The position numbers and the translations under genes were made by a program. A stretch of 39,915 nucleotides of DNA from NCBI GenBank assembly GCA_016196605.1, contig JACPXJ010000004.1:1-39915 (forward strand), given 5' to 3'. Within the stretch, counting starts at the first letter, position 1. The number at the start of each line of letters is the position of its first letter. Source of the DNA: Candidatus Nomurabacteria bacterium (GTDB lineage: Bacteria; Patescibacteriota; Minisyncoccia; Phycocordibacterales; UBA9973). This document shows positions 1,365-30,205 of this stretch, piece after piece. The notes beneath the pieces are model-generated. The model searched no databases, was not told where the DNA came from, and saw only the letters and a list, made by a program, of their open reading frames with translations.

Positions 1365-1387
1365 CGCTTCCGCAAAGGGCGGAAGCG
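1365..1387. repeat. GC-rich hairpin CGCTTCCGC-AAAGG-GCGGAAGCG in the recombinase 3' tail
   Basis: 9-bp perfect inverted repeat. The CTTCCGCAA..GCGGAAG core is the same as in the palindromes inside atpG and atpD. Confidence 0.8.
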
Positions 1388-1582: not shown

Positions 1583-2638
1583 TTATTCTTCAAATTTCGG
1601 CTTTTCTATTTCAAGCAGTGCAAGCTCCGGAGATGCGCCGGATATCTTGAGCACATCCTTGTCTATCTTTTTTAATTCCTTGTTGGAAGCATTGTAATGG
1701 TTTACGACGGTGCCGAGAGCATTGCCTAATTTATTGTGATATTCGTCGTAGGATTTCAGATGCTTGCCCAAATCTTCCACTTTCTTGATTATTTCTTTGG
1801 CGGATTCTTCTATTTTCAAAGCTTTCAGCCCTTGCAAGACTGTCTGCAAATATGCGAGGAATGAAGTGGGGGAAGTGATGATTACTTTGTATTTTCCGGC
1901 TGCGCGCTGGATCAGATTTTCTGCATTTTCCTCTAGTGACCCCACTTTGTTGGTAAGAAGATCATAATAAATTGCTTCATGAGGTATGAACATAAAGGCG
2001 AAATCGGTTGTCCCTTTTGTCGGTTGGATATATTTTGAAGTTTCTACGATTCGGTTTTTAAGATCGTTTACAAAAATTACTTCCAATTTCTTTTTTTCAA
2101 GAACATTCAGCTCCTCAACCATTTTATTGTAATTTTCCAGTGAGAATTTAGAATCGATCGGAATAATTTTGTCTTTGACGAAGACGACAGCGTCTACGAT
2201 TGTTTTATCGGGGAATTCATATTGCATCTGGTAGCTTCCGGGCGGCAAGACATTTTTTAAAACTGTTTCCAAATAATATTCGCCGAGGATCCCGCGCTGT
2301 TTTGGATTCTTAAGAATGTTTTCCAAGCTTTGTAATTGATCAGCGAAAGAAATGACCTGCTTGTTTGTTTCATCCAGCCGAGTGAGACGTTCCGTCACAT
2401 CGCGGATGATTTTATTCGACTCGCTCGAATGGAATTGCAAACTCTCCCGCACCTGTTTATGCGATTCGCCAATCTTGCTATCCACCGTCCGCGAAAGCTC
2501 GTTTATTTGAGTCAATATAAGATTCAATCCCGTGTCGTCTTTTTTCTCATCTTTTTCCTGATTTCTTTTGCCAAAAATAAAATAGGCAAAGACTACTCCG
2601 CCAGCCAAACCTAAGATTATCCAAATAATGTTTTGCAT
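1583..2638 (-). CDS. rmuC: DNA recombination protein RmuC
   Basis: N-terminal TM helix (MQNIIWIILGLAGGVVFAYFIF), a coiled coil, then RmuC nuclease-like motifs (DAVVFVKDKIIPIDSKFSLENY, FAFMFIPHEAIYYDL). I chose the ATG at 2638 because the longer ORF overlaps the upstream gene, which stops at 2643. Confidence 0.85.
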   Translation of the reverse strand: MQNIIWIILGLAGGVVFAYFIFGKRNQEKDEKKDDTGLNLILTQINELSRTVDSKIGESHKQVRESLQFHSSESNKIIRDVTERLTRLDETNKQVISFADQLQSLENILKNPKQRGILGEYYLETVLKNVLPPGSYQMQYEFPDKTIVDAVVFVKDKIIPIDSKFSLENYNKMVEELNVLEKKKLEVIFVNDLKNRIVETSKYIQPTKGTTDFAFMFIPHEAIYYDLLTNKVGSLEENAENLIQRAAGKYKVIITSPTSFLAYLQTVLQGLKALKIEESAKEIIKKVEDLGKHLKSYDEYHNKLGNALGTVVNHYNASNKELKKIDKDVLKISGASPELALLEIEKPKFEE

Positions 2639-2642
2639 CTTA

Positions 2643-3362
2643 TTATTTTCCCAAATAATGTCTAAGCGTATAAATCCAATCCTCATGTTCCAGAACATCG
2701 CCTTTTTCTTTTTCACCCAGAATCCATTCCAGCCAGCCGCGGTCTATTTTGAGCACTTCTTCGATCGATTTTCCTTTATGTTTGCCGAAGTTCAGTGTTT
2801 TAATAAGCAATGGTTTTGAAGAAATTTCTATCATTCTTTCTATTGCTCCTTTCTCATCCAATTTTTCTTCCTGCATTATTTTATTTTTCAGTCGCTCAAA
2901 AAGTTTTTCCAAGACAAGTACGTCGCCCATAGCGTCATGCGCTTGCGCGTCTATATCAAAATCAAGCAAGTAGCGCAGATATTGCAGATTATACCTGCCT
3001 ATTTTCTCGTCCGGGTCCAAATACCTCGCTAGTTTTAAGGTGCAGATGAATTTTTTTGGCTCGATACCTTCCTTTTTTATCATATGAAGGTCGAAAGGGG
3101 CATTGTGGGCAACAACGACGGAATTGTTATTTTCAAAAAGTTTCTTTATTTTTGCCTGATCCCCGCTATCTTTGAAAGATTTTTTGCTTTCCACCATTTT
3201 GTTGGTTATGTGATGCACGGCGGAAGCTTCCGGTGGGATCTTGATTTCCGGCTTGTAGAGGCCGGTGAATCGCTCAGATCCCGCTATATAGGCAATCTGG
3301 CATAGAAAGTCTTTTTGTTCATTGCCGGTAGTTTCCGTGTCAAAAAAGATAATTTTCTGCAT
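2643..3362 (-). CDS. DnaQ-like 3'-5' exonuclease (ExoX-like) with a C-terminal DUF3820-like domain
   Basis: Exo I motif MQKIIFFDTETTG, VVAHNAPFDLHMI, AHDAMGDVLV. The C-terminus KHKGKSIEEVLKIDRGWLEWIL resembles the exodeoxyribonuclease X C-terminal module. Confidence 0.8.
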   Translation of the reverse strand: MQKIIFFDTETTGNEQKDFLCQIAYIAGSERFTGLYKPEIKIPPEASAVHHITNKMVESKKSFKDSGDQAKIKKLFENNNSVVVAHNAPFDLHMIKKEGIEPKKFICTLKLARYLDPDEKIGRYNLQYLRYLLDFDIDAQAHDAMGDVLVLEKLFERLKNKIMQEEKLDEKGAIERMIEISSKPLLIKTLNFGKHKGKSIEEVLKIDRGWLEWILGEKEKGDVLEHEDWIYTLRHYLGK

Positions 3363-3513: not shown

Positions 3514-3966
3514 ATGCTACACGAACAAATAAAAAACGGAATAAAAGAGGCGATGATGGCGAAAGACGCCATGAAGCTTAAGGTATTTCGGGCGATGTCA
3601 GCCGCCTTTACCAATGAACTGGTGGCAAAAAACAAAAAACCGCAGGAAATGCTGGCGGATGAGGAGGCAGTGGTCGTTATCACAAAGCTTGCAAAGCAGA
3701 GAAAAGATTCCATTGATCAATTTAAAAAGGGGAATCGGGAAGATTTGGTAAAAGAGGAACAGGCAGAACTTGCCATATTGGAAAATTATTTGCCGAAAAT
3801 GATGGACAAAAGTGAAGTCGCAAAGATCGCTCAGGCAAAAAAGGCAGAACTCGGGATTACCGACGGCGCAAAGAAGGGAATGCTGATGTCGGCTTTGATG
3901 AAAGATTTGAGGGGCAAGGCGGACGGGGCAGTGGTCAAGGAAGTAGTTGAATCTTTATTTGATTAG
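3514..3966 (+). CDS. GatB/YqeY domain-containing protein
   Basis: Typical YqeY-like sequence (IKEAMMAKDAMKLKVFRAMSAAF.., ELAILENYLP, GKADGAVVKEVV). Confidence 0.85.
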   Translation: MLHEQIKNGIKEAMMAKDAMKLKVFRAMSAAFTNELVAKNKKPQEMLADEEAVVVITKLAKQRKDSIDQFKKGNREDLVKEEQAELAILENYLPKMMDKSEVAKIAQAKKAELGITDGAKKGMLMSALMKDLRGKADGAVVKEVVESLFD

Positions 3967-4872
3967 ATGATGTTCAGTAAAAAAGTTAAATTAGCAACCC
4001 ACGACGGCGCATTTCACGCGGACGAGATTTTCGCAGCTGCTCTTCTTACCGTGTATTTAAAAGAGAAGGGCAAGCGTTTTGAAATTACTCGTACCCGCGA
4101 TGAGGACTATATAAAAACCGCTGATTATGTTTTTGATGTAGGGGGCATTTATAACGCAGAAAAAAATTTGTTTGACCATCATCAGCCGGGAGGCGCTGGC
4201 AGGCGAGAAAATGGCATTGAGTACTCTTCTTTTGGTCTGATTTGGAAAAAGATCGGCACAGAACTTTGTGGGAGCGAAAAAGTAGCCGAGATGATAGATA
4301 AAAAACTAGTTGCGCCTATTGATGCAAATGATAATGGCTTTAATTTAGTCACTAGTAATCATGAAGTTTCGCCATATACGATTCAAGACTTATTTCATTC
4401 CATGAGAGCCACATGGCGTGAAGAGACTTTGACTGATGATGAAGTGTTTTTTAAATGCCTGGAAATCGCGAAAGAAATTTTGGCGCGAGAAATCATTCAG
4501 GCCAAAGACGGCGCTATTGCGGAAGAAAGAGTTATTTCAATTTACAACAATACCGCAGATAAAAGAATTATAGTTTTTGATAAGAATTATGCTTTTCAAT
4601 ATGACGTAGAAAATTTTCCTAAGCCCCTTTTTGCGGTTTACCCAAGCAGATCGATAAAAGATAAATGGACAGCGAAAGCAGTTCGAAAAGATCCGAAAGC
4701 GTTTAGCAATCGAAAAGATTTTCCAAAATCTTGGGCGGGGCTAAGAAATGAAGAATTACAAAAAGTTTCAGGCGTTCAGGATGCTGTTTTTTGTCATAGG
4801 AATTTATTTCTAGCTGTAGCTAAATCGAGAGAAGGGGCTATCAAATTGGCTCAAACTGCGATAGAATCCTAA
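3967..4872 (+). CDS. MYG1 family (UPF0160) metal-dependent hydrolase
   Basis: THDGAFHADEIFAAALL, FDVGGIYN..LFDHHQ and PIDANDNG motifs characteristic of MYG1. Confidence 0.85.
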   Translation: MMFSKKVKLATHDGAFHADEIFAAALLTVYLKEKGKRFEITRTRDEDYIKTADYVFDVGGIYNAEKNLFDHHQPGGAGRRENGIEYSSFGLIWKKIGTELCGSEKVAEMIDKKLVAPIDANDNGFNLVTSNHEVSPYTIQDLFHSMRATWREETLTDDEVFFKCLEIAKEILAREIIQAKDGAIAEERVISIYNNTADKRIIVFDKNYAFQYDVENFPKPLFAVYPSRSIKDKWTAKAVRKDPKAFSNRKDFPKSWAGLRNEELQKVSGVQDAVFCHRNLFLAVAKSREGAIKLAQTAIES

Positions 4873-5872: not shown

Positions 5873-5958
5873 ATTTATGGAGAAAAAATTTAAACAACAA
5901 CAAGATAAAGAAAATAAAAAATTTGCTCTAGTAATAGATTTAATTCCAAATGTTTTTT

Positions 5959-6718: not shown

Positions 6719-8161
6719 ATGCAAAAGAATTATTATCCAACAATAGGCCTCGAAATACATGCGGAATTAAAAACACAGACAAAAATGTTCTGCGCCTGCA
6801 AAAATGATCCTGATGAAGAAAAACCTAATGTAAATATTTGCCCGGTTTGCATGGCGCATCCGGGGGCGCTGCCAGTCATCAATAAGAAGGCGGTAGAAAA
6901 TGTAATAAAAGTCGGCCTTGCTGTCGACGGGAAAATTGCAGACTTCACCGAGTTTGACCGCAAGAACTATTTTTACCCCGACATTCCAAAAGGGTATCAG
7001 ATTTCACAATACAAGTTTCCGATAGTTTTTGGCGGACATCTGGCAGATTTTGATATTACCCGGGTGCATTTAGAGGAAGACACTGCGAACAACAAGCATG
7101 ACCGTGGGGATTTCTCTCTCATAGATTTCAACCGCGCAGGCGTGCCCTTGATGGAGCTTGTTACCGAGCCGCATACTTTTGATGGCGCGGACGAAGCCGG
7201 GAAAGGCGCTACCAAGTTTGCCAAAGAACTGCAGCTCATACTTTGGTATTTGGGTGTATCGGAAGCGAATATGGAAAAAGGCGAGATGCGTGTCGAGGCC
7301 AATATTTCTGTTTCGACAGATAAAAAAGTCCTTGGCACGAAGGTGGAGGTAAAAAATTTAAACTCATTCCGAAGCGTGGAGCGGGCGATAAAATACGAGA
7401 TTGATCGGATGACTGAACTTTTAGAGAAAGGAAAAGGAGCAGAAATAGCGCAGGAAACCCGAGGATGGGATGAATCAAAGCAGAAAACTTTTTCACAAAG
7501 AAAAAAAGAGGGGAGCGCAGATTACAGATATTTCCCGGATCCAGATTTGCCAAAATTGAAGCTGTATGAAGCATTTGATCTAAAAAAGATGAAAAAAGAA
7601 CTGCCAGAATTGCCGGAGGACAAACGATTGAGATATAAGAAGGATTATGGAATTAAAGATGAAGACACTGAGGTTTATATAAATAATCCAGTTTTAGGCA
7701 CATGGTTTGAATTAGTTATAAAAGAGTTGAAAGAAAAAAAAGAATTAATACAACTTGCTTCAAATTATATAAAAAATGATATAGCGGGATTAGTGAATAC
7801 GGTTTTAGTAGAAGGTACGACTAAATATCCAAATCCAAAAAACTTTGCGAAATTAGTGAATATGAATTTTAATAAAGAAATTAATTCTGCAGTCGCTAAA
7901 AAATTATTAGGAAATCTTGTAACTTTTGATGAAAATGTAGAAAATTTAGCAAAAGAAGAAGGATTATTGCAAATAAGTGATGAAAAAATCTTGAAACAAA
8001 TCGCAGAGAGGATTATCGATGCCAATCTGAAAGTCGTGGCGGATTACAAAGGCGGTAAGGAACAGGCACTCATGTCTTTGGTGGGGCAAATAATGAAAGA
8101 AACTAAAGGGTCCGCCAATCCCGCAGTTACTAAGCAAATTTTAATCGATCTGCTAAAATAA
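6719..8161 (+). CDS. gatB: Asp-tRNA(Asn)/Glu-tRNA(Gln) amidotransferase subunit B
   Basis: YYPTIGLEIHAELKTQTKMFC, NICPVCMAHPGALPV, RVHLEEDTA, EVKNLNSFRSV, and a C-terminal YqeY-like tail. Confidence 0.95.
   Translation: MQKNYYPTIGLEIHAELKTQTKMFCACKNDPDEEKPNVNICPVCMAHPGALPVINKKAVENVIKVGLAVDGKIADFTEFDRKNYFYPDIPKGYQISQYKFPIVFGGHLADFDITRVHLEEDTANNKHDRGDFSLIDFNRAGVPLMELVTEPHTFDGADEAGKGATKFAKELQLILWYLGVSEANMEKGEMRVEANISVSTDKKVLGTKVEVKNLNSFRSVERAIKYEIDRMTELLEKGKGAEIAQETRGWDESKQKTFSQRKKEGSADYRYFPDPDLPKLKLYEAFDLKKMKKELPELPEDKRLRYKKDYGIKDEDTEVYINNPVLGTWFELVIKELKEKKELIQLASNYIKNDIAGLVNTVLVEGTTKYPNPKNFAKLVNMNFNKEINSAVAKKLLGNLVTFDENVENLAKEEGLLQISDEKILKQIAERIIDANLKVVADYKGGKEQALMSLVGQIMKETKGSANPAVTKQILIDLLK
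8151..8159 (+). promoter_or_regulatory. Extended -10 box TGcTAAAAT embedded in the gatB 3' end, 6 nt upstream of the aldolase ATG
   Basis: TGCTAAAAT at 8151-8159, ATG at 8166. Confidence 0.4.
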
Positions 8162-9211: not shown

Positions 9212-10864
9212 ATGAAAGAAGAAATAAAAAAATTTTTCAGAGGGGACGCTGAGGATAGTGAAGAAACACTTTTAAAATATTCGCATGATGCGAGCATTTT
9301 TGATATTCGTCCAAAAATAGTTCTGTTTCCGAAAGATGCGGAGGACGTAAAGAATTTAGTGAAGTGGGTAAGTGAAAATCAGCAAAAATATCCCGGACTT
9401 TCGATCACCGCAAGATGCGCCGGCACGGATATGTCCGGCGGCGCGGTCGGTGAATCTATAATTTTGGATTTTACCCGGCATATGAATAAATTGATAAGGT
9501 GGAATGAATCCTTGAATTTTTCACAGGTTCATTCCATAACCGTTCAGCCCGGGATGTTTTATCGGGACTTTGAAAAAATTACTCTATCCAAGGGTATGAT
9601 TCTCCCTTGTTTTACCGCTTCAAAAACTATCAATGCCATGGGCGGAATGTTCGGCAATAATTCAGCCGGGGAACGAACTTTAAGGTATGGCAAGACTGAA
9701 GACTATATCTTAGAAACTAAAGTTGTTTTTGCCGATGGAATTGAGAGAGCTGTAAAACCGATACCGGTTTCGGAAATTTCCAGGCAGGAAGGAGTCTACA
9801 CTAAAATTTACGGCTTGTTTAAAAATAACGAAAAAGAAATAAAAGAAGCTAAACCCGATGTGCATAAAAATTCCGCCGGCTACTACATTTGGAATGTTTT
9901 AAAAGATGATGTTTTTGATTTGAATAAGCTGCTGGTAGGTTCGCAGGGGACACTCGGCATAGCGACAGAGATTACTTTCCGACTGGTGCCCGAACCGAAA
10001 TATTCCCGCCTTCTTGTCGTCTTTCTCCGGGACATGAGCTTGCTTCCCCTTTTGGTTAACAAAATCCTCAAATATAATCCTCAGACCCTCGAGTCCTATG
10101 ACGATAAGACTTTTCTTTTGGTGGTGAAATACATAAGGGGATTCGCCCAGTTGCTTGGTCTCAAAAATTTCATGAAGCTTATTTTTAGTTTTCTGCCGGA
10201 AGCGGTGATGACTTTCCGGAATGGTTTCCCAAAGCTGGCCCTTTTAGTTGAATTTACAGGGGAGACACAGAAAGAAGCGAATGAAGAGGCGGAAAAGGCG
10301 CTTCAGGAGCTCACGACTGTTAAAAAAATTGGCTTGCGACTAACAAGGGACGCGCTTGAAGCAAAAAAATACTGGACTATACGCCATGAGGCATTCAACT
10401 TAATTCGTTACCATTTGAAAAAGTTCAAATCCAAACCTTTTGTCGATGATGTGATTGTCCGGCCGGAAAGACTGCCGGAATTTTTTCCAGCGCTTTATAA
10501 AATTTTGAATGAGTATAAAAAAGAGATGGCTTTTGCGGTAGGCGGACATGCTGGTGACGGCAATCTGCATATCTATACTCTGGTAGATCCCAAGGACCCA
10601 AACGTGAAAAAGATGATCATTGAAGTTTCCAATAAAGTTTATGATCTTGTAGTTCGACTTGGCGGCTCGATAACGGCGGAACACAATGACGGGCTTATTC
10701 GCACGCCTTATTTACACAAGATGTATAGTGAAAAAATGTTAGAAATTTTTGCGGAAATCAAGCGAATTTTCGACCCTAAACATATTCTTAATCCTGGTAA
10801 AAAAGTTCCAGTCGTGGGCGGAGCGGGAACTGAAGAATATATCGTTAAGCATATTGCTTTTTAA
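9212..10864 (+). CDS. FAD-binding oxidoreductase (GlcD / FAD-linked oxidase family)
   Basis: FAD_binding_4-like N-terminus (PKDAEDVKNLVKW..ITARCAGTDMSGGAV), and a C-terminal FAD-oxidase domain (GGHAGDGNLH.., GGSITAEHNDGL, DPKHILNPGK). Confidence 0.85.
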   Translation: MKEEIKKFFRGDAEDSEETLLKYSHDASIFDIRPKIVLFPKDAEDVKNLVKWVSENQQKYPGLSITARCAGTDMSGGAVGESIILDFTRHMNKLIRWNESLNFSQVHSITVQPGMFYRDFEKITLSKGMILPCFTASKTINAMGGMFGNNSAGERTLRYGKTEDYILETKVVFADGIERAVKPIPVSEISRQEGVYTKIYGLFKNNEKEIKEAKPDVHKNSAGYYIWNVLKDDVFDLNKLLVGSQGTLGIATEITFRLVPEPKYSRLLVVFLRDMSLLPLLVNKILKYNPQTLESYDDKTFLLVVKYIRGFAQLLGLKNFMKLIFSFLPEAVMTFRNGFPKLALLVEFTGETQKEANEEAEKALQELTTVKKIGLRLTRDALEAKKYWTIRHEAFNLIRYHLKKFKSKPFVDDVIVRPERLPEFFPALYKILNEYKKEMAFAVGGHAGDGNLHIYTLVDPKDPNVKKMIIEVSNKVYDLVVRLGGSITAEHNDGLIRTPYLHKMYSEKMLEIFAEIKRIFDPKHILNPGKKVPVVGGAGTEEYIVKHIAF

Positions 10865-10887: not shown

Positions 10888-11586
10888 ATGTTTGTAATTG
10901 AAGCAACACCTCGAGAAAAGGGCGTTAAGATAGAAGTCCTTAGAAAGTCCGGCAAGATTCCTGCAGTTTTTTATGGCGCGGGCAAACAATCTACTTCAAT
11001 AGCTATTCCTAGTCCTCTTTTCAAAAAGGTCTGGCGAGAGGCGGGAGAATCTTCTACTGTAAAAATTGGCATGCCCAAGGGAGGAGATATCGATGTGCTT
11101 ATCCACGAAGTTCAGGTAGATCCGGTAACCGATGAGCCGATACATGTGGATTTTCTTGCGATAGACATGAGGAAAAAAATCAAAGTTAAAGTACCGCTAG
11201 TTTTCGAAGGCATATCAAATGCGGTGAAGAGCGGCATAGGAAACCTAGTGAAGGTGCTTCACGAAATCGAAATCGAGGCGCTGCCAGCTGATTTGCCTCA
11301 CAATCTTCCTGTGGATATTTCAAAACTCGAAACACTGGATAATAATATTGTCGTTTCCGATATTAAATTGCCGGCCGGCGTAGCAGCTGTTACGTCTCCG
11401 ACTGATGTGGTGGCTTCTGTGGTTGCTCAGGTGGAAGAAAAAGAAGAAGTGGTAGTGGTTCCAGACTTGACTGCTATTGAAGTCGAGAAGAAGGGCAAGA
11501 AAGAAGAAGAGGGAGCACCAGGAGCCGAGGGTGCAGCCGCTCCAGCACCGGCCAAGGAGGAAAAGGCAGAGAAAGAGAAAAAGTAA
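10888..11586 (+). CDS. rplY: 50S ribosomal protein L25 / general stress protein Ctc
   Basis: REKGVKIEVLRKSGKIPAVFYG, HEVQVDPVTDEPIHVDF, and an acidic/Lys-rich tail. Confidence 0.9.
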   Translation: MFVIEATPREKGVKIEVLRKSGKIPAVFYGAGKQSTSIAIPSPLFKKVWREAGESSTVKIGMPKGGDIDVLIHEVQVDPVTDEPIHVDFLAIDMRKKIKVKVPLVFEGISNAVKSGIGNLVKVLHEIEIEALPADLPHNLPVDISKLETLDNNIVVSDIKLPAGVAAVTSPTDVVASVVAQVEEKEEVVVVPDLTAIEVEKKGKKEEEGAPGAEGAAAPAPAKEEKAEKEKK

Positions 11587-11625: not shown

Positions 11626-12978
11626 ATGGCAAAACAGGCGGTCATACTTTTTGTCGTTTTTATAGCTATTTTAGGCAGTTTTTTCTCGTTCAGAATTAAT
11701 GCCGCATTTGATTGTCTCTCTCTCACTACTTCTTCCAGCCAGGCAGATAAGGATTATTGCAGAAGCGAGCTTGCGGATATCGAAGCGGAGCTGGAGCGGC
11801 TTTTGAACCAGCAAAAAGAACAACAGAAACAAACTGGTACGCTGAAAGGTGATGTTGATTATTTGACGAGCCAAATAAATGCTCTTAAAGCCAAGATCAA
11901 AGCTCGCGCGCTAGTGATCGCGCAGCTGAAAGTAGATATAAAGGAAAAGACGAGCAAGATCGAATCGCTCCAGAAAAAGATAGAGCGTGAGCATGAATCT
12001 CTTGCCCAGCTTTTGCGCAATACCAGAGAGCGGGACGAAGATACATTAGTGCATTTGGTGCTCGGAGAAGAGAGTATTTCAGGTTTCTATAGTGATTTTG
12101 AGTCATATGCTTCCATTAAAGAGGCGGTGAATAAATCAGTAAATACTATCAGGGGCGTAAAGACGGAAACAGAGGTTGCAAAAAAAGATCTGGAGCTAAA
12201 GCAGGATGCGGAAACTGACGCTAAGGCGGAACTAGAAAGCGCGCAAAAGAAAGTAACCCAGTCGGAAACAGAAAAGAAACAGCTTTTGGCAATTTCCAAA
12301 GAAAAGGAGCAGGAATATAGAGAATTGGCGGCGCAGAAGAAGATAGAGGCCGATAGAATTAGAAGTGCCCTCTTCAGTTTGGCAGGTATATCGCAAAAAA
12401 TTGATTTCGGTACCGCGCTCGAATATGCAAATTCTGTAAATAAAGAGCTCGGAGTTGATCAGGCGTTTTTACTCGCCATTCTTACGCAGGAATCCAATCT
12501 CGGGGCAAATGTTGGCCAATGTTACCTCGTAAACCCTGATACGGGTGCTGGCGTAGGTAAAAATACAGGAACGCCATTTGCAAATGTCATGAAACCGACC
12601 CGAGATGTCGTGCCATTCCTTGAAATAACTAACGCGCTTGGCTTTAACGGCTTTCAAACTGCTGTATCTTGCCCAATTGCGAGCGCAGGAGGATACGGTG
12701 GAGCCATGGGTCCGGCCCAATTCATTCCTTCAACTTGGAAAATATTCGAAAGCCGCTTAAAAAATATTCTGGGGCATACAGCCAATCCTTGGTCCCCGCG
12801 AGACGCCTTTATGGCTTCCGGAATGTATCTGGCTGATTTGGGGGCAATAGGCAATAGCGCAAGTTCCCAATTGAGAGCCGCTTGTAAATATTACGGTACA
12901 GGGGGGTCTACATGTTCTTATGGACGCAGCGTGATGAAAATTAAAGCAAAGATTCAGAGCGATATTGATCTTTTATAG
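11626..12978 (+). CDS. Secreted/membrane-anchored coiled-coil protein with a C-terminal lytic transglycosylase-like domain
   Basis: N-terminal hydrophobic anchor, ~230 aa of coiled coil, then AILTQESNLG (catalytic Glu context) and GAMGPAQFIPSTW, reminiscent of MltB/Slt-type transglycosylases. Confidence 0.65.
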   Translation: MAKQAVILFVVFIAILGSFFSFRINAAFDCLSLTTSSSQADKDYCRSELADIEAELERLLNQQKEQQKQTGTLKGDVDYLTSQINALKAKIKARALVIAQLKVDIKEKTSKIESLQKKIEREHESLAQLLRNTRERDEDTLVHLVLGEESISGFYSDFESYASIKEAVNKSVNTIRGVKTETEVAKKDLELKQDAETDAKAELESAQKKVTQSETEKKQLLAISKEKEQEYRELAAQKKIEADRIRSALFSLAGISQKIDFGTALEYANSVNKELGVDQAFLLAILTQESNLGANVGQCYLVNPDTGAGVGKNTGTPFANVMKPTRDVVPFLEITNALGFNGFQTAVSCPIASAGGYGGAMGPAQFIPSTWKIFESRLKNILGHTANPWSPRDAFMASGMYLADLGAIGNSASSQLRAACKYYGTGGSTCSYGRSVMKIKAKIQSDIDLL

Positions 12979-16321: not shown

Positions 16322-16383
16322 GACCTCTCCCGGCTTTCAGCCACCCTCTCCTTAATAAGGAGAGGGACCGGGGGTGAGGTGAG
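16322..16383. repeat. REP/MITE-like nested palindrome, copy A
   Basis: ACCTCTCCCGG..CCCTCTCCTTAATAAGGAGAGGG..CCGGGGGTGAGGTGAG. The same architecture occurs at 18030, 24211 and 30151. Confidence 0.85.
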
Positions 16384-17194: not shown

Positions 17195-18043
17195 ATGGAA
17201 AAAATCGCGCATGAAATTACATTATTTGCAGAGCCAATTTTCCACCTTGGGAATTTTACCATTACCAACGCTCTGCTTACATCTTGGGTAGCTGTCGCAG
17301 TAATCATAATTTTATCTATCATATTGCGCACGAAGCTTCGCGTCATCCCCGGCAAACTCCAGAATATTTTTGAAATCGTTACCGAGGGCGCGCTAAGTCT
17401 CTGCGATCAGGTGACTGGCAGTCGCATCCTTTCCATGAAAATTTTTCCTTTGGCTATCTGCGTTTTTTTCTTCATCTTACTTAATAATTGGTTGGGACTT
17501 TTGCCTATTGGCGGACTGGGGCTTTTAGAAAGAAGCGAAAAAGGGCTAGCTTTTGTCCCATTTTTACGAGGTGGGACGGCTGACATAAATACTACCATTG
17601 CCCTTGCCGTAATGGCTGTTATCGGGGCAAATATCTTCGGGATTTTTTCAATCGGCATATGGAAAATTTTTAATAAATATGTTAATCTAAAGGCGCTCGG
17701 GGGGACATTTACGAAAATACGTAAAGAGCCGGCAGTCATCATCGTAGCTCCGATCACGTTCTTTGTGGGTATAATCGAGATTATCAGCGAATTTGCCAAG
17801 GTGGCCTCTTTGTCATTTCGTCTTTTTGGCAACGTTTTTGCCGGGGAAGTTCTTCTGGCATCCATGGCGGCGCTGGTGGCCTATGTGGTTCCAATACCAT
17901 TTCTCTTTTTGGAAATTATGGTGGGAATCATACAGGCATTAATATTTTCAATTTTGCTGGTTGTTTATTTTACGATAGCCTCTACGGATCATGAGGAGCA
18001 CGAAGAAAAACATGAACATTTATTGAGTGCCCCCTCTCCTTAA
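17195..18043 (+). CDS. atpB: F0F1 ATP synthase subunit a
   Basis: Polytopic membrane protein with the conserved LSFRLFGNVFAGEV (essential Arg). The last codons and the stop lie inside a REP element. Confidence 0.95.
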   Translation: MEKIAHEITLFAEPIFHLGNFTITNALLTSWVAVAVIIILSIILRTKLRVIPGKLQNIFEIVTEGALSLCDQVTGSRILSMKIFPLAICVFFFILLNNWLGLLPIGGLGLLERSEKGLAFVPFLRGGTADINTTIALAVMAVIGANIFGIFSIGIWKIFNKYVNLKALGGTFTKIRKEPAVIIVAPITFFVGIIEIISEFAKVASLSFRLFGNVFAGEVLLASMAALVAYVVPIPFLFLEIMVGIIQALIFSILLVVYFTIASTDHEEHEEKHEHLLSAPSP

Positions 18044-18116
18044 CAAGGAGAGGGCCGGGGTGAGGTTCTTGAGTCAGGAACCTCCTCCCAGCCTCCCCCT
18101 TATTAAGGGGGAGGGG
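18030..18116. repeat. Two adjacent REP-like palindromes, copies B1 and B2
   Basis: CCCTCTCCTTAACAAGGAGAGGG + CCGGGGTGAGGT at 18032-18066. Then AGGTTC-TTGAGTCAG-GAACCT, followed by the variant CCTCCCCCTTATTAAGGGGGAGG at 18092-18114. Confidence 0.85.
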
Positions 18117-19334: not shown

Positions 19335-20867
19335 ATGTCAAATCAGATAGTAGAAAATTTAAGAAAGGAAATAGAAGCATTCAAAGCGGAAGTCAAAACC
19401 GAGAAAGTCGGCAAGGTAATGGAAGTTTTTGACGGAATCGCCAAGGTTTCCGGCCTTTCTGACATTCGGTCAGGAGAAATGGTCACATTCCAAAATGGCG
19501 AGAGAGGAGTTGCGCTTAATCTGGAGGAGGATGCAGTCGGCGTCATAATTCTGGGTGACTTTTCTAAAATAAAAGAAGGCGACGAAGTAAAGGCTACCGG
19601 AAGAATTTTAGAAATATCGGTATCTAATAATATTTTGGGCAGAGTTGTGAACGCTATCGGTGTTCCCATTGACGGCAAAGGGGCAATCTCCGCCCAAGGC
19701 GGATCCGCCTCGGGCGGAAAAAGTTCCATAGAATATTATCCAATTGAAAAAGTGGCTCCCGGAGTGATTACCAGAGAGAGCGTGGGGGAGCCGGTCGCTA
19801 CGGGCATTAAGGCAATAGACGCTATTATCCCGATCGGCCGCGGACAGCGCGAGCTCTTGATCGGTGACAGGCAGACGGGAAAAACCGCCATCGCCATTGA
19901 CGCCATTTTGAATCAAAAGGGCCAGAATATGATTTGTGTCTATGTTTCTATCGGACAAAAAGATTCAAAATTACGCAAATTGCAGGCGCGACTCGAAGCA
20001 GGCAATAGCATGGAATATACGGTCATAGTCTCTGCCGGCGCATCAGAAGCCGCAGCCCTTTCTTATATCGCTCCTTACACTGGAGTTTCTATCGCAGAAT
20101 TTTTTATGGATCAAGGAAAAGATGTCTTAATTATTTATGATGATCTTTCCAAGCACGCTGTGGCCTATCGAGAAATTTCTCTGCTTCTCCGCCGTCCTCC
20201 CGGCCGTGAAGCGTATCCGGGAGACGTTTTTTATCTGCACTCCCGGCTTTTGGAACGCGCCTGCCGGAGAAATGCAAAATATGGCGGGGGATCGATAACG
20301 GCGCTGCCAATTATTGAGACGCAGGCGGGAGATATTTCTGCCTATATTCCAACAAATGTTATTTCCATCACTGACGGGCAAATTTTCTTGGAAACCGACC
20401 TCTTTTACAAAGGTGTCCGACCGGCGGTCAACGTGGGATCATCCGTGTCTCGTGTCGGCTCCAGCGCCCAGATAAAGGCAATGAAGAAGGTGGCAGGCAC
20501 GCTCAAGCTCGACCTCGCGCAATTCCGCGAGCTCGAAGCTTTCTCTCAATTCGGTTCTGATTTGGACGATGCAACCAAGCGCCAGCTGGAACGGGGCAAG
20601 AGAGCCGTGGAAGTCTTGAAACAGACTCAATATGCACCAGTTAAGACCGAACATCAAGTGGTGACTTTATATGCTCTTACAAAAGGTTATATGGATGACG
20701 TACCAGTAAATAAAATAAAAGAATTTGAAAGCGGACTTATTGACTACACTGAGAGAAATGCAAAAACTTTTTATAAAGAAGTTATAGAAAGTAAAATGTG
20801 GACAGACAAAGGCGAAGAGCAATTAAAGAAAGCAATTGCGGATTTTAAAAGTAGTTTTATAAAATAA
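19335..20867 (+). CDS. atpA: F0F1 ATP synthase subunit alpha
   Basis: [13 protein letters not shown] (P-loop), [43 protein letters not shown]. Confidence 0.97.
19689..19718. repeat. Two tandem mini-hairpins TCCGCC-CAA-GGCGGA / TCCGCC-TCG-GGCGGA inside atpA
   Basis: 30 nt, in frame, within the segment encoding [13 protein letters not shown]. Confidence 0.8.
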
Positions 20868-20924
20868 TGGCCGGCATCCCGAACGAAAGCAAAGCTTCGT
20901 ACGGGACAGGCAAAAGAAATTTAC

Positions 20925-21866
20925 ATGGCGGGTACTAAAGAGATAAAACGACGAATTAGATCAGTCAAGAACACCAAGAAGATCACAAAGGCGATGGAGC
21001 TGGTGGCGGCTTCCAAGATGAAGCGAGTCGTTTCTTTGACGCTTGCTTCCCGATTATATGCTGAATATTCTTGGGAGATTTTGACCTCGATAGCTAAAAA
21101 TGTGGAAGAATTGGAACATCCGCTTTTCGCAGAAAGAAAGAAAAAGAAAAATGAAAAAGAGAATATTTTATTGATACTTATCACTTCAAATAGGGGTCTT
21201 TGTGGCGCTTATAATGCGCAAATAATGAAAAAAGCTCTTACTTTTTTAAAAACTAATAAAAACGCCAACATAAGTTTAGGGTCAGTTGGCAAAAAGGGAG
21301 AAATTTTCATTAATCGCACGATTGGATTTTCTTCAGCGAACTTTATTCTAGATGATGTAACTCTTGCCGATATTGAACCAGTTGCAAAATATGTTATAGA
21401 TGAATATAAAAATTTAACATACGGTAAAGTTTTGGTGGCTTATACTGATTTTATTTCCGCTCTTACCCAAAAGCCGAACATCAAGCAGATATTGCCTGTA
21501 TCCAAAGTTGATCTCAAAAAAGTGATCGAGTCTTTGGAGAATATTCGTCACGCGGAAGTCGGACTTCCGCAAAGCCAAAGCGGAAGTCCGACTTCCGCGC
21601 AAATTAAAGTGGATTATTTGTTTGAAGGGGATAAGGTAAAATTGATTAGCTCGCTTGCGGAAAAGCTTACCCGAATGCAAATATATCAGATGATAATCGA
21701 ATCAAACGCGAGCGAGCAGTCGAGTCGTATGGTTGCCATGAAGAATGCCTCGGACGCTTCCGGAGAAATGATAGATGATCTGACCTTGATGTTCAACAAA
21801 GCGAGACAGGCGAATATTACCAGAGAAATATCAGAAATAAGCGCGGGGATGGCATCCGTAAGCTGA
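20925..21866 (+). CDS. atpG: F0F1 ATP synthase subunit gamma
   Basis: KEIKRRIRSVKNTKKITKAMELVAASKM, and C-terminus ARQANITREISEI..G. Confidence 0.95.
   Translation: MAGTKEIKRRIRSVKNTKKITKAMELVAASKMKRVVSLTLASRLYAEYSWEILTSIAKNVEELEHPLFAERKKKKNEKENILLILITSNRGLCGAYNAQIMKKALTFLKTNKNANISLGSVGKKGEIFINRTIGFSSANFILDDVTLADIEPVAKYVIDEYKNLTYGKVLVAYTDFISALTQKPNIKQILPVSKVDLKKVIESLENIRHAEVGLPQSQSGSPTSAQIKVDYLFEGDKVKLISSLAEKLTRMQIYQMIIESNASEQSSRMVAMKNASDASGEMIDDLTLMFNKARQANITREISEISAGMASVS
21551..21599. repeat. Twin 19-nt palindromes in inverted orientation inside atpG
   Basis: GCGGAAGTCGGACTTCCGC (21552-21570), AAAGCCAAA, GCGGAAGTCCGACTTCCGC (21580-21598). The second is the exact reverse complement of the first. 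Confidence 0.9.
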
Positions 21867-21919: not shown

Positions 21920-23335
<1,416 letters not shown>

Positions 23336-23346
23336 AATTTTTTAAC

Positions 23347-23386
23347 AAGGACGGTCCTTAAGAGAGTTTCCCCAAGGACCGTCCTT
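23347..23386. repeat. Intergenic twin palindromes AAGGACGGTCCTT / AAGGACCGTCCTT between atpD and atpC
   Basis: The second unit is the exact reverse complement of the first. They can form a 13-bp stem with a 14-nt loop or two local hairpins. Confidence 0.85.
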
Positions 23387-23878: not shown

Positions 23879-24619
23879 ATGTCAAAATTTTACATAGTTG
23901 CGACGCCGATAGGAAATATGGGAGACATCACCCTAAGGGCAATTGAAACCTTGAAAAATGTCGATTTAATTTTGTGCGAGGATACGCGAGAGACGCATAA
24001 AATTTTAGAAAAATATGGAATATCTACGCCGACTATGAGTTATCCATCCGACGATGTCGTCAGAAAAAACTCCAGACAGAGCAACAAATTTGACAAAATT
24101 TTTGAATTATTGGAAGAGGGGAAAGATCTTGCTCTAGTTTCTGACGCGGGTACACCGACCATTTCTGACCCGGGCGCGATGCTAGTTTCTAAAATTAAAG
24201 AAAAGTTTAACCTCACCCCTTCGCCCCTCTCCTTATCAAGGAGAGGGGTTGGGGGAGAGGTGAGTGTGATTCCTATTCCCGGTCCTTCGGCTGTCATTGC
24301 GGCGCTCTCTGCTTCAGGCCTGCCTACTCATGAATTTACTTTTCTCGGTTTTTTACCGCACAAAAAGGGCAGAGAGACTTTGTTTAAAGAAATCGTCGAG
24401 TCAGAAAGGACAATGGTGTTTTACGAATCTCCCCACAGAATTTTAAAAACACTTGAAGCTCTCGTTAAATTCTGTCCTGATAAAAAAGTCTGCGTTGCGA
24501 GGGAGCTTACGAAAATTTATGAAGAATTTAAAACCGGGACACCATCGGAAATATTATATTATCTAGTTCAAAACCCTGTAAAACAAAAAGGGGAGTTTAC
24601 GGTTATCGTTGCATGGTAG
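23879..24619 (+). CDS. rsmI: 16S rRNA (cytidine1402-2'-O)-methyltransferase
   Basis: FYIVATPIGNMGDITLRAIETLKNVDLILCEDTR, SDAGTPTISDPG, PIPGPSAVIAALSASGLP, ESPHR. Confidence 0.9.
   Translation: MSKFYIVATPIGNMGDITLRAIETLKNVDLILCEDTRETHKILEKYGISTPTMSYPSDDVVRKNSRQSNKFDKIFELLEEGKDLALVSDAGTPTISDPGAMLVSKIKEKFNLTPSPLSLSRRGVGGEVSVIPIPGPSAVIAALSASGLPTHEFTFLGFLPHKKGRETLFKEIVESERTMVFYESPHRILKTLEALVKFCPDKKVCVARELTKIYEEFKTGTPSEILYYLVQNPVKQKGEFTVIVAW
24211..24264. repeat. REP/MITE-like nested palindrome, copy C, in frame inside rsmI
   Basis: CCTCACCCC-TTCG-CCCCTCTCCTTATCAAGGAGAGGGG-TT-GGGGGAGAGGTGAG. It translates as LTPSPLSLSRRGVGGEVS between the SDPG and PIPGPSA motifs. Confidence 0.9.
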
Positions 24620-29014: not shown

Positions 29015-30151
29015 ATGAACATTTTAATTTTCTTGATTATTCTTCTAGTCTTGGTTTTAGTCCATGAGTTTGGGCATTTTTTTACTGCAAAAAAGTTCGG
29101 TATAAGAGTTGATGAATTCGGCTTTGGTTTTCCGCCGAAAATTGCAGGAATAAAAAAGGGTGAGACAGAGTATAGTCTTAATGCCTTGCCATTTGGCGGA
29201 TTTGTCAAGATTTTTGGCGAAAACGGAGAAGATTCTGTGAAGGTCGAACCTTCCCAAAATACTCATAGGGAAGGTTCGACCTTCACAGATGTGGATGCGA
29301 GCAGGAGTTTTGTGAATAGGCCAAAATGGCAGCAGGCGATAGTTCTTTTTGCCGGCGTGTTTATGAATTTTATTTTAGCTTGGATATTATTTTCTGTCGG
29401 TTTCATGTCCGGGCTTCCGACATCAGTCGGGAATGAAGCGAAAGGGCAGGTTCTTGAAAACGTAAATTTAACTGTTGTTTCTGTGTTAGAAACATCTCCG
29501 GCATTTATGGCAGGACTTAAATCCGGCGATAAGATAGTATCGGTACAAAGTGGACAGGATTCGTTAAGCAAGATTGATCCTGAAACTTTGAAATCCTTTA
29601 TCGTTGCCCATCCAGATAAAGAAATAGAGGTCGGATACGAGAGGGGTAACAATATTCAGGTTGCTAAAGTAACACCCATTCAAAATACCGAACAGGATAA
29701 ACCAATGATAGGCATATCCATGGATATGATTGGTACGGCCAAACTTCCATTTTTAACGGCTTTTAAAGAAGGAATGACCTTGACACTATTTGTTACAAAA
29801 GGTACAGCCGTGGGGCTCTATACGCTTATTTCTGAAGCAGTGAGAGGTCAAGGTAGTCTGGACTCGGTGACGGGGATCGTGGGCATGGTGGGTATGACAG
29901 GTGATGCATACGAATTTGGTTTTGTTTATCTCCTGTCATTTACCGCGCTTATTTCGGTGAACCTTGCGATCATAAATTTAGTTCCGATTCCGGCGCTGGA
30001 TGGCGGACGGCTGCTGTTCCTTCTTATTGAAAAAATAAAAGGGTCGCGTCTAAATTCTAAATTTACCAATACCGCCAACGCTGTCGGTTTCGGCGCCTTA
30101 ATAATTCTCATGCTGGTTATTACATATCACGATGTAGTAAAATTATTTTGA
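29015..30151 (+). CDS. rseP: RIP metalloprotease RseP (site-2 protease)
   Basis: HEFGHFFTAKKFGIRVDEFGFGFPP (HExxH), a PDZ-like middle, and NLVPIPALDGGRL. Confidence 0.9.
   Translation: MNILIFLIILLVLVLVHEFGHFFTAKKFGIRVDEFGFGFPPKIAGIKKGETEYSLNALPFGGFVKIFGENGEDSVKVEPSQNTHREGSTFTDVDASRSFVNRPKWQQAIVLFAGVFMNFILAWILFSVGFMSGLPTSVGNEAKGQVLENVNLTVVSVLETSPAFMAGLKSGDKIVSVQSGQDSLSKIDPETLKSFIVAHPDKEIEVGYERGNNIQVAKVTPIQNTEQDKPMIGISMDMIGTAKLPFLTAFKEGMTLTLFVTKGTAVGLYTLISEAVRGQGSLDSVTGIVGMVGMTGDAYEFGFVYLLSFTALISVNLAIINLVPIPALDGGRLLFLLIEKIKGSRLNSKFTNTANAVGFGALIILMLVITYHDVVKLF
29235..29288. repeat. 54-nt palindrome (perfect 21-bp arms, 12-nt loop) inside rseP
   Basis: CTGTGAAGGTCGAACCTTCCC-AAAATACTCATA-GGGAAGGTTCGACCTTCACAG. 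It is in frame and encodes SVKVEPSQNTHREGSTFTD. Confidence 0.95.
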
Positions 30152-30205
30152 CCTCTCCCTAGCCCCTCTCCTTATTAAGGAGAGGGGAAAAAAGGGGTGA
30201 GGTGA
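30151..30205. repeat. REP/MITE-like nested palindrome, copy D
   Basis: ACCTCTCCC-TAG-CCCCTCTCCTTATTAAGGAGAGGGG-AAAAAA-GGGGTGAGGTGA. It starts on the last base of the rseP stop, and its GAGGTGA tail lies 7 nt (30206-30212) upstream of the ATG at 30213. Confidence 0.9.

Follow-up and report, generated by a model that had tools for sequence, protein, structure and literature searches.

The F1 gamma subunit gene atpG of a Candidatus Nomurabacteria bacterium contains a twin palindrome, two 19-nt sequences that lie a few bases apart and are each self-complementary except at the central base. We analysed this element within a 39,915-nt stretch of DNA with 42% GC, referred to here as the window. The twin is very likely a doublet of REP (repetitive extragenic palindromic) elements, similar to the REP doublets known as REPINs, and part of a putatively mobile Patescibacterial system of REPs and REP-associated tyrosine transposases (RAYTs), with a repeat unit of ~21 nt, (T)TGCGGAAGTCsGACTTCCGCA(A). 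The REP/RAYT system has a wide distribution in Patescibacteria (Paceibacteria/Nomurabacteria). Copies of the 19-mer are dispersed and restricted to the lineage, lying both between genes and in frame within them, and the RAYT-like genes of the lineage are bracketed by palindromes that co-vary with them. The atpG loop itself appears to be re-used, with gain, loss and turnover of palindromes at one site. REP/REPIN elements and RAYTs, together termed the 'REPtron', are known from Proteobacteria (Nunvar 2010, PMC2817692; Bertels & Rainey 2011, PMC3116915), and a REPIN consists of two inverted REPs that are separated by a short spacer and form one hairpin (PMC3116915).

The first palindrome, GCGGAAGTCGGACTTCCGC, occupies positions 21552-21570 and the second, GCGGAAGTCCGACTTCCGC, positions 21580-21598. 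The nine-nucleotide spacer between them, AAAGCCAAA (21571-21579), forms the loop when the long hairpin folds. Each 19-mer is the exact reverse complement of the other, and they differ solely at the centre base, which is G in the first and C in the second. Because each 19-mer is already self-complementary except at its centre, this relation holds one base of information. Together with a flanking C and G, segments 21551-21570 and 21580-21599 form an inverted repeat without mismatches, whose arms measure 20 nt and whose spacer measures 9 nt, and the whole doublet spans 21551..21599 (this and the other palindromic features are given without strand). The twin segment encodes AEVGLPQSQSGSPTSAQ, directly before the DYLFEG block, and its first palindrome begins at a codon start, 21552. 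Seen as REP units, GCGGAAGTCgGACTTCCGC (21552..21570) and the AA that follows it make up 21 nt encoding AEVGLPQ, and GCGGAAGTCcGACTTCCGC (21580..21598) is read in a different phase, yielding SGSPTSA with the A before and the G after it. The original prediction had described these mutually reverse-complementary palindromes and their codon-boundary start just upstream of (D)YLFEG, and its description is exact in coordinates, sequence and frame. It had also offered two 9-bp hairpins or one ~20-bp stem as alternative folds, of which the single 20-bp stem is the minimum-energy form and the pair of small hairpins is not. The calculated folding energy is -28.9 kcal/mol as single-stranded DNA (z = -9.5) and -42.5 kcal/mol as RNA (z = -9.6).

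These features agree with REPIN geometry in the inverted orientation, the short spacer, the centre bases G then C and the one predicted long hairpin. The unit length of 19 nt, or 21-23 nt with the T/A flanks, is in keeping with the about 20-60 bp of REPs, while the palindromes are perfect, unlike the imperfect palindromes of REPs. The argument that exact reverse-complement twins imply an inverted duplication is weakened, as the orientation rests on the single centre base and direct pairs exist (L036, L057, L060). In the window, the 19-mer pattern with up to 3 mismatches is found twice, against 0.03 expected. The stem word GCGGAAG occurs 14 times versus 6.0 +/- 2.3 expected, and its sites include those in atpD (22262/22272) and in the tail of a recombinase gene (1367/1379); the predicted match of the arm termini to these two elements through GCGGAAG/CTTCCGC is real.

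To assess the distribution of the repeat, we scanned one genome per species from 185,579 species for the exact 19-mer GCGGAAGTCSGACTTCCGC. The scan returned 71 loci, of which 48 are labelled Patescibacteria, 6 are further low-GC contigs of metagenome-assembled genomes and 17 belong to other phyla. The last group is about as large as expected by chance, and 14 of its 17 loci are in genomes with at least 57% GC. The remaining 54 loci represent 34 assemblies and about 63 sites, with up to 7 exact sites per assembly. No exact match was found in 2.9 million viral contigs, and a phage-borne element was rejected on this basis.

Of 65 exact sites in the low-GC loci, about 45 fall inside open reading frames (ORFs) of at least 200 codons, so the extragenic placement of REPs does not hold here. 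The repeat is in frame in GatB (five genomes), M1 aminopeptidase (four), MnmA (four) and GDH (three), and further in ApbE, a PIF1-like helicase, an Fmt-like protein, TopA (as a doublet), ArgRS, UvrC, a Mur ligase, a release factor, KsgA, HolB, TatD and MYG1, as well as AtpG. Other sites are in AT-rich intergenic DNA, as in L007. The base preceding the 19-mer is T in 81% of sites and the base following it is A in 72%, with the flank consensus TTT...AAA. The effective unit is therefore a 21-23-nt palindrome, and 21 nt correspond to seven codons. The unit has no stop codon in any frame. Its readings in long ORFs are AEV[G/R]LPQ (33), CGSPTSA (9) and LRKSDFR (3), and the dominance of the first points to a filter on the encoded peptide. 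A second copy is present within 70 nt at 7 of the about 63 sites, compared to about 0.001 expected per site, and five of the seven pairs are spaced 25-29 nt start to start. Singlets outnumber doublets. Among all twin elements about 12 are inverted and 3 direct, not all of them independent.

The 19-mer is physically associated with a candidate transposase. In the relative L039, a 243-aa ORF has an exact copy at each end and one more in its interior. The ORF contains the HUH motif (NHFHI) and the motif YIHLNP, and N-H-F-H and Y..Y-x-H-L-N-P are invariant in 41 aligned members of its family. Its sole NCBIfam match is the REP-associated tyrosine transposase (E = 3.7e-12). The best PDB match of its AlphaFold model (pLDDT 87.6) is 4ER8_A, the structure of E. 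coli RAYT in complex with a REP hairpin (E = 2.5e-7, TM 0.65 on target), followed by the TnpA proteins of IS608 and ISDra2. A phmmer search against solved structures gave no sequence match. The motif NP(L/V)(R/K)xG that follows the tyrosine in known RAYTs (Nunvar 2010) is absent; the family has NP[IV]KLI, with the last-position glycine missing. More than 4,500 proteins of the collection belong to the family, and those that are named come from Patescibacteria, Paceibacterota or Nomurabacteria. Some sources label them 'REP element-mobilizing transposase RayT'.

We examined nine RAYT-like loci: L039, seven further loci of the family (L156-L158 and L160-L163) and L053, which encodes a divergent Y1 transposase that passes the Pfam threshold (30.1 versus 23). 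A cognate palindrome is found upstream of the gene at 9/9 loci and also downstream at 8/9. At L160 the downstream palindrome is of a different type from the upstream and internal one. Eight variant types are present: GCGGAAGTC-s (L039), GCGGAAGAC-s (L156), GCGGAAGC-aag/ctt (L158 and L161), GCGGAAGCC-s (L163), GCCTAGGTC-s (L157), GCCAAAGTC-g (L160), GCCTTAACC-w (L162) and CGCGGAAGT-tgg (L053). The palindrome thus differs between genomes and matches within a locus, in the flanks and in the gene interior.

All nine ORFs hold their own cognate palindrome in frame, after the HUH strand in the main clade and before it in L053. The internal copies are at L039 3484-3502, L156 2303-2321, L157 2275-2295, L158 2276-2294, L161 773-793 and L053 7160-7178, and are also present in L160, L162 and L163. 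In the aligned family members displayed they appear as the peptides RKSDFR, RKQGFR, RKTVFR, PKSDFG and others, and the reading frame varies, with RKQGFR in L158 and AEARLPQ in L161. The segment corresponds to a low-confidence loop in the model of the transposase, at residues about 91-102.

Several features surround these loci. In L157 and L158 the gene is located in the same neighbourhood, with an aminoacyl-tRNA synthetase gene upstream and mraZ-rsmH downstream, which suggests a vertically inherited resident gene and not a hopping insertion sequence. A DnaA-box-like sequence, TTATCCACA / TGTGGATAA, adjoins palindromes at two RAYT loci, at L039 3826-3834 and just upstream of position 1966 in L158, and at two other sites, in L048 and L055. 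The L039 gene is flanked on both sides by a ~110-bp direct repeat (about 2950-3055 and 3945-4061).

It was considered whether the 19-mer serves another DNA transaction, as an uptake sequence for natural competence, an operator or a nucleoid-protein site. Its dyad symmetry resembles that of a site for a dimeric protein, and DprA is encoded in the window. Other bacteria likewise have DNA uptake sequences within genes and in inverted pairs. Known uptake sequences are, however, orders of magnitude more numerous than the at most 7 exact copies found per assembly. In addition, the palindrome type changes between related genomes together with the flanks of the RAYT-like gene, and several unrelated palindrome families coexist in the window. 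We therefore regard a recognition sequence of this kind as highly improbable and favour a REP that is tied to its RAYT.

The host gene atpG (20925..21866, + strand) encodes a gamma subunit of 313 aa (Pfam ATP-synt, E = 1e-78), in which the insert comprises residues 210-226. The best relatives of the protein are from Candidatus Nomurabacteria / Paceibacterota, which belong to the Candidate Phyla Radiation (CPR), and the closest, P0002, is 81% identical. Across 120 AtpG orthologs, both the length and the sequence of the segment before DYLFEG are hypervariable. In the AlphaFold model of the window protein (56 orthologs), residues 208-230 are the sole segment with a pLDDT below 50; it contains the insert and is located between helix 194-211 and the C-terminal coiled-coil helix. 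The twin palindrome is thus tolerated in a loop of AtpG that is predicted to be disordered.

The variability of this loop could suggest an ordinary hypervariable segment with a chance palindrome, or an assembly artefact. This is next to impossible given the two copies found against 0.03 expected and the folding z of -9.5. Moreover, identical DNA is present in independent assemblies from ENA, NCBI and JGI, and the element is in frame and leaves an essential gene intact. Both possibilities are rejected by the shuffles and by the recurrence in independent assemblies.

Orthologs document the turnover of the loop. In L003 (67% aa identity) the atpG gene contains the identical two 19-mers with a different spacer, AAAAGA. 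A single unit is found in L041, whose AtpG is 75% identical, and L033 has a single unit and a related hairpin. The nearest relative, L001 (AtpG 81% identical), carries a different twin in the same loop, GGCGGTT-a-AACCGCC / GGCGGTT-t-AACCGCC, which forms a perfect 44-bp palindrome. In L080 and L081 the loop is occupied by a twin of GCGGAAGC-ctt/aag-GCTTCCGC, and in L083 by the palindrome GCGGAAGACgGTCTTCCGC. The loops of L076, L077, L082, L084 and L087 are ordinary K/E/N-rich segments without a palindrome. Orthologs with the same amino acids in non-palindromic codons, which the original prediction had named as evidence for an ordinary variable loop, were not seen among these genes: the same peptide goes with identical palindromic DNA (L003, L041), the nearest relative has a different palindrome, and several relatives have none. 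We dropped the idea that the 19-mer is perfectly conserved at orthologous sites and hence selected, since a scan for exact matches carries an ascertainment bias and the AtpG alignment, which is free of it, holds decayed copies (also L159).

Where both can be linked, in two genome pairs, the atpG-loop palindrome appears to match the RAYT variant. The L083 loop sequence GCGGAAGACgGTCTTCCGC is the type flanking the RAYT gene of P0157. The loop of L159 (P0097), GCCgAGGTCgGACCTAGGC-aag-GCCTAaGTCcGACtTcGGC, is a slightly decayed doublet of GCCTAGGTCsGACCTAGGC, the type flanking the RAYT gene of P0231. In the L159 doublet, an in-frame TAG is lost through a T-to-G change, for which the distal arm has a compensating change. 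The pairing of the genes was deduced from equal longest contigs, of 106,175 nt for L083/P0157 and 102,251 nt for P0097/P0231. In the window, the atpG element is of the L039 type and the atpD element of the L158/L161 RAYT type.

A selected RNA or DNA structure of the atp operon has to be weighed, such as an mRNA stabiliser, a processing site or a translational pause, with a conserved hairpin and drifting sequence. Sister genomes do have different palindromes at the same atpG and atpD positions, and the one in atpA is present in the window alone. The stems are very stable, with the -42.5 kcal/mol calculated for RNA, and REPs are reported to act as RNA elements in other bacteria (PMC3733652). However, the five K/E/N-rich loops named above manage without a palindrome, and these sequences are shared with unrelated genes, with intergenic DNA and with the surroundings of transposase genes. 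All pairs in the stems are Watson-Crick and none is G-U, which points to a process at the DNA level. An Rfam scan of the window identified four tRNAs only and no family at the twin, so a known RNA family was rejected. A terminator or attenuator was rejected as well, as the + strand has no T-run, the pattern match is antisense only and terminator-like sites are not enriched. A selected structure is very unlikely in the light of these results, and a mobile REP doublet explains them better.

The window contains further palindromes at sites of length variation. We made a codon alignment of 14 syntenic genes of the window and L001 and counted internal indels of 3 aa or more. Five of nine such indels in the window coincide with GC-rich palindromes, in atpA (19689-19718), atpG, atpD (22249-22291), the TP_methylase gene (24210-24261) and the M50 peptidase gene (29234-29289). 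The same is true for most of those in L001, in atpG, atpD, holB, the M24 peptidase gene and atpB. GC-rich perfect hairpins (stem of at least 8, at least 55% GC) number 14 in the window, compared to 1.2 +/- 1.2 and a maximum of 5 in codon shuffles. With a stem of at least 9 and a stem GC of at least 50%, there are 34 in 164 kb of close relatives (0.2 expected) and 34 in 521 kb of loci from distant AtpG relatives (9.4 expected).

Several of these elements share the 'twin' build X-n-X' spacer X-n'-X', namely those in atpA, atpG, atpD, the atpD-atpC spacer and the M50 gene. The atpD element (22249..22291) is an in-frame REP doublet, GCGGAcGC-ctt-GCTTCCGC / aag / GCGGAAGC-aag-GCgTCCGC, with a 20-bp stem, and encodes 14 aa. 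It is of the sister REP type GCGGAAGC-aag/ctt-GCTTCCGC, which also flanks the RAYT genes of L158 and L161 and forms the atpG doublet of L080/L081. In L001 the same site is occupied by the twin CAGCGGTT-g/c-AACCGCTG. The atpA element (19689..19718) consists of in-frame twin small hairpins, TCCGCC-caa-GGCGGA and TCCGCC-tcg-GGCGGA, and is absent from L001. In the intergenic spacer between atpD and atpC, AAGGACgGTCCTT and AAGGACcGTCCTT are separated by 14 nt (23347..23386). The in-frame twin in the M50 (RseP-like) peptidase gene (29234..29289) has 22-nt arms, each with GAAGGT-cga/tcg-ACCTTC; at this site the L001 gene lacks a palindrome and is 14 aa shorter. A hairpin in the 3' tail of a truncated serine-recombinase ORF, CGCTTCCGC-aaagg-GCGGAAGCG (1365..1387), contains stem words of the atpG and atpD REPs. 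In both the window atpD doublet and the L159 atpG doublet, a change in one REP is matched in the distal arm, leaving the long hairpin paired and the local hairpins mismatched.

Matched changes of this kind are what arm-from-arm copying would give, and an origin in situ, by replication fold-back or template switching on local sequence and with no mobile or dispersed element, could account for them. The atpG doublet is also a perfect inverted repeat including one flanking base on each side. A third observation comes from the MYG1-like gene, where a repeat replaces an equal length of similar sequence: window positions 4516-4536 read the non-palindromic TGTGGGAGCGAAAAAGTAGCC (CGSEKVA), of the same length as the 21-nt repeat in L063 (CGSPTSA), and the C, G, S and A codons of the two differ only synonymously. 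Either the repeat has decayed here and was kept for the amino acids it encodes, or repeats can overwrite similar sequence. Against an origin in situ, about 63 unrelated sites in 34 assemblies have the identical 19-mer, as do RAYT genes, and both arms carry foreign, family-typical sequence. The L003 ortholog, at 67% aa identity, keeps the same 19-mers although synonymous sites elsewhere have diverged. Local templating cannot produce one sequence in GatB, GDH, TopA and others, but it may explain the step from singlet to doublet. An origin in situ is quite improbable overall. Of the two explanations in the original prediction, hairpin-templated duplication thus fails on its own to explain identical copies at dozens of unrelated loci and could contribute to doublets. 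The other, a mobile palindromic element, gains support from the dispersal of the 19-mer in Patescibacteria and its bracketing of RAYT-like Y1 genes, from which mobility itself is deduced.

A number of points weigh against a mobile REP doublet. The evidence for transposition by the RAYT-like enzyme is that of sequence, and the same-genome links between atpG and RAYT types rely on equal longest contigs. Canonical REP features are missing, namely the GTAG/CGTC tag, the imperfect palindrome and the extragenic placement; in the site flanks, GTAG/CTAC (2/64) and CGTC/GACG (4/64) occur at chance level. The main-clade RAYT-like proteins (P0121/L039) score below the curated cut-offs of NCBIfam NF047646 (46.4 versus 80 bits) and Pfam PF01797 (Y1_Tnp, 22 versus 23). 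The exact 19-mer family is represented in the 40-kb window by the two atpG copies only. Pfam identified no RAYT or other transposase in any of the 40 window ORFs scanned, just the truncated serine recombinase, and the 19-mer-flanked RAYT gene was seen in the relative L039 and not in the window genome. In MYG1 the repeat fills exactly the space of an existing 21 nt, which looks like conversion or decay, not insertion. No clean insertion boundary or target duplication could be defined from empty and filled sites, because the host loops vary in length and one replacement is of equal length.

It is possible to outline how such a system would operate. The RAYT may recognise the palindrome hairpin in single-stranded DNA, cut and rejoin beside it, and thereby disperse copies. 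Copies landing in genes would survive only if harmless, which the absence of stops in every frame, the length of seven codons and the location in surface loops or linkers may allow. Selection on frame and peptide would then decide which copies persist. Two units a few bases apart would pair as one long hairpin, the REPIN form. This long pairing, not the small hairpins, is apparently the maintained form, as judged by the long-range compensation in the window atpD and L159 atpG doublets. As the REP/RAYT pair of each lineage diverges, the occupant of the loop would be replaced. We propose, tentatively and with some doubt, an undescribed self-referential arrangement, in which the palindrome inside the RAYT ORF might be a master or donor copy or an autoregulatory site, and the gene-borne copies might regularly supply CPR proteins with new loop and linker segments, at the same few permissive sites.

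The window and L001 contain other repeats. A second family of ~57 nt forms an imperfect long hairpin, ACCTCWCCC..CCCCTCTCCTTA-n-TAAGGAGAGGGG..GGGGWGAGGT, with a Shine-Dalgarno-like AAGGAG in its core. It is found in the window at 16323-16380, 18032-18066, 18092-18114, 24210-24261 and 30151-30203, with four copies at or between gene ends and one in frame within the TP_methylase gene, and in L001 at 6790-6810 and 10922-10942. In the atpG loop of other Paceibacteria (P0026, P0031, P0041) this family encodes NLSPTPLLNKERGEGVRS. A GC-rich repeat present in L001 and not in the window, CCTGCCCGCAATGC...TGCAGGCGGG, encodes PARNA..AGG at the N-terminus of atpB (5874-5939) and in atpC (12804-12839). Between atpA and atpG, L001 has an extra ORF of 101 aa without a Pfam hit (9691-9996), where the window has a 57-nt spacer (20868-20924).

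The housekeeping genes of the window include the atp operon, gatB, obg, a prfA-like gene, mreB, frr, topA, parB and dprA. The large-serine-recombinase ORF (532-1488, +) has Recombinase and zinc-ribbon domains only, lacks the resolvase catalytic domain and overlaps a tRNA (1458-1529, -). It is probably the remnant of an integrated element, and its tail contains two GC-rich hairpins, at 1365-1387 and 1399-1423. A gene of the RmuC family is located at 1583-2716 (-). RmuC is reported to limit inversions at short inverted repeats, which could matter for a genome so rich in perfect palindromes.

Likenesses to the proteobacterial system comprise a short palindromic unit, inverted doublets with a short spacer and one predicted long hairpin, a transposase gene flanked by its own REPs, the co-variation of REP and RAYT, and a transposase of the Y1/HUH type with 4ER8 as best fold. 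Differences can also be observed. The Patescibacterial unit is perfect, 19-23 nt long and without a GTAG head; its apparent copy number is low, and a REP lies inside the RAYT-like ORF. The copies are often in frame in genes, whereas in P. fluorescens 14 of 1,067 16-mers overlap genes (PMC3116915). The host is a CPR bacterium. RAYT homologs were not found outside the lineages examined by Nunvar 2010 (PMC2817692), and the phyla for which Di Nocera 2013 lists REP families do not include Patescibacteria (PMC3733652).

Intragenic REPs with GTAG/CGTC tags have been described entirely within ORFs of known proteins in several species and phyla (PMC3733652). Some occupy the same site in orthologs, as in recB of two Xanthomonas species, and head-to-head dimers predominate (PMC3733652). 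Those REPs are tagged with GTAG/CGTC and come from different taxa, while the tags are at chance level (1-4/64) at the Patescibacterial sites. They are also the minority of a mainly extragenic family, in contrast to the about 45 of 65 Patescibacterial sites inside ORFs of at least 200 codons.

Another parallel is offered by the Rickettsia palindromic elements (RPEs), reportedly described by Ogata et al. in 2000. RPEs measure about 100-150 bp. Like them, the Patescibacterial copies are palindromic repeats in frame in conserved genes of a reduced genome, translated as extra surface segments. The atpG element, at 19-49 nt, is smaller than an RPE and shares the in-frame placement; we set the two apart by description, not by sequence. 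RPEs have no known dedicated transposase, whereas the ~21-nt unit has an identifiable cognate RAYT-like gene. RPEs are mentioned in PMC3733652 and PMC10969869, and the CGTC repeats, the class holding the R. conorii RPE sequences, 'seem lacking a dedicated transposase' (PMC3733652).

The insertion sequences (IS) of the IS200/IS605 group have a transposase of the same superfamily, and IS608 and ISDra2 (structures 2VJV, 2XM3 and others) provide the second-best fold. IS200/IS605 ends are small hairpins recognised in single-stranded DNA, not terminal inverted repeats. The Patescibacterial protein is nearer to RAYT in fold and profile, with 4ER8 ranked first and REP_Tyr_transpos as the only NCBIfam match, and has about 230 aa with a C-terminal extension. 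Unlike a multi-copy IS, its gene looks host-resident, with conserved neighbourhoods, and lies next to mraZ/rsmH in L157 and L158. Cyanobacteria (very small dispersed repeats) and yeast mitochondria (GC clusters) likewise have very short GC-rich palindromes in AT-rich genomes, which can be in frame in genes. To our knowledge, no RAYT link has been described for either, and their sequences are probably unrelated to the 19-mer.

While REPs, REPINs, RAYTs, intragenic REPs and the in-frame palindromic elements of Rickettsia are already known, full-text literature searches found no paper that links REP, RAYT or palindromic insertions with CPR/Patescibacteria. The points of difference are the perfect, untagged 19-nt unit, copies that lie mostly in frame in essential genes and a repeat within the transposase ORF. 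With this finding REP/RAYT, so far described chiefly in Proteobacteria and a few other phyla, would be extended to the Candidate Phyla Radiation. The term 'extragenic' no longer fits, as genomes with almost no intergenic space keep the repeats in frame, and the loops that carry them belong to subunits of ATP synthase, to enzymes of tRNA modification, to topoisomerase and to the transposase itself. Many of the odd G/S/P/A/E-rich insertions in CPR proteins, and most internal window/L001 indels of at least 3 aa, would thereby have a concrete explanation. The repeats also offer sequence markers for strain typing, and a 19-nt perfect hairpin with a 230-aa enzyme would constitute a compact natural system for studying the co-evolution of a Y1 transposase and its repeat.

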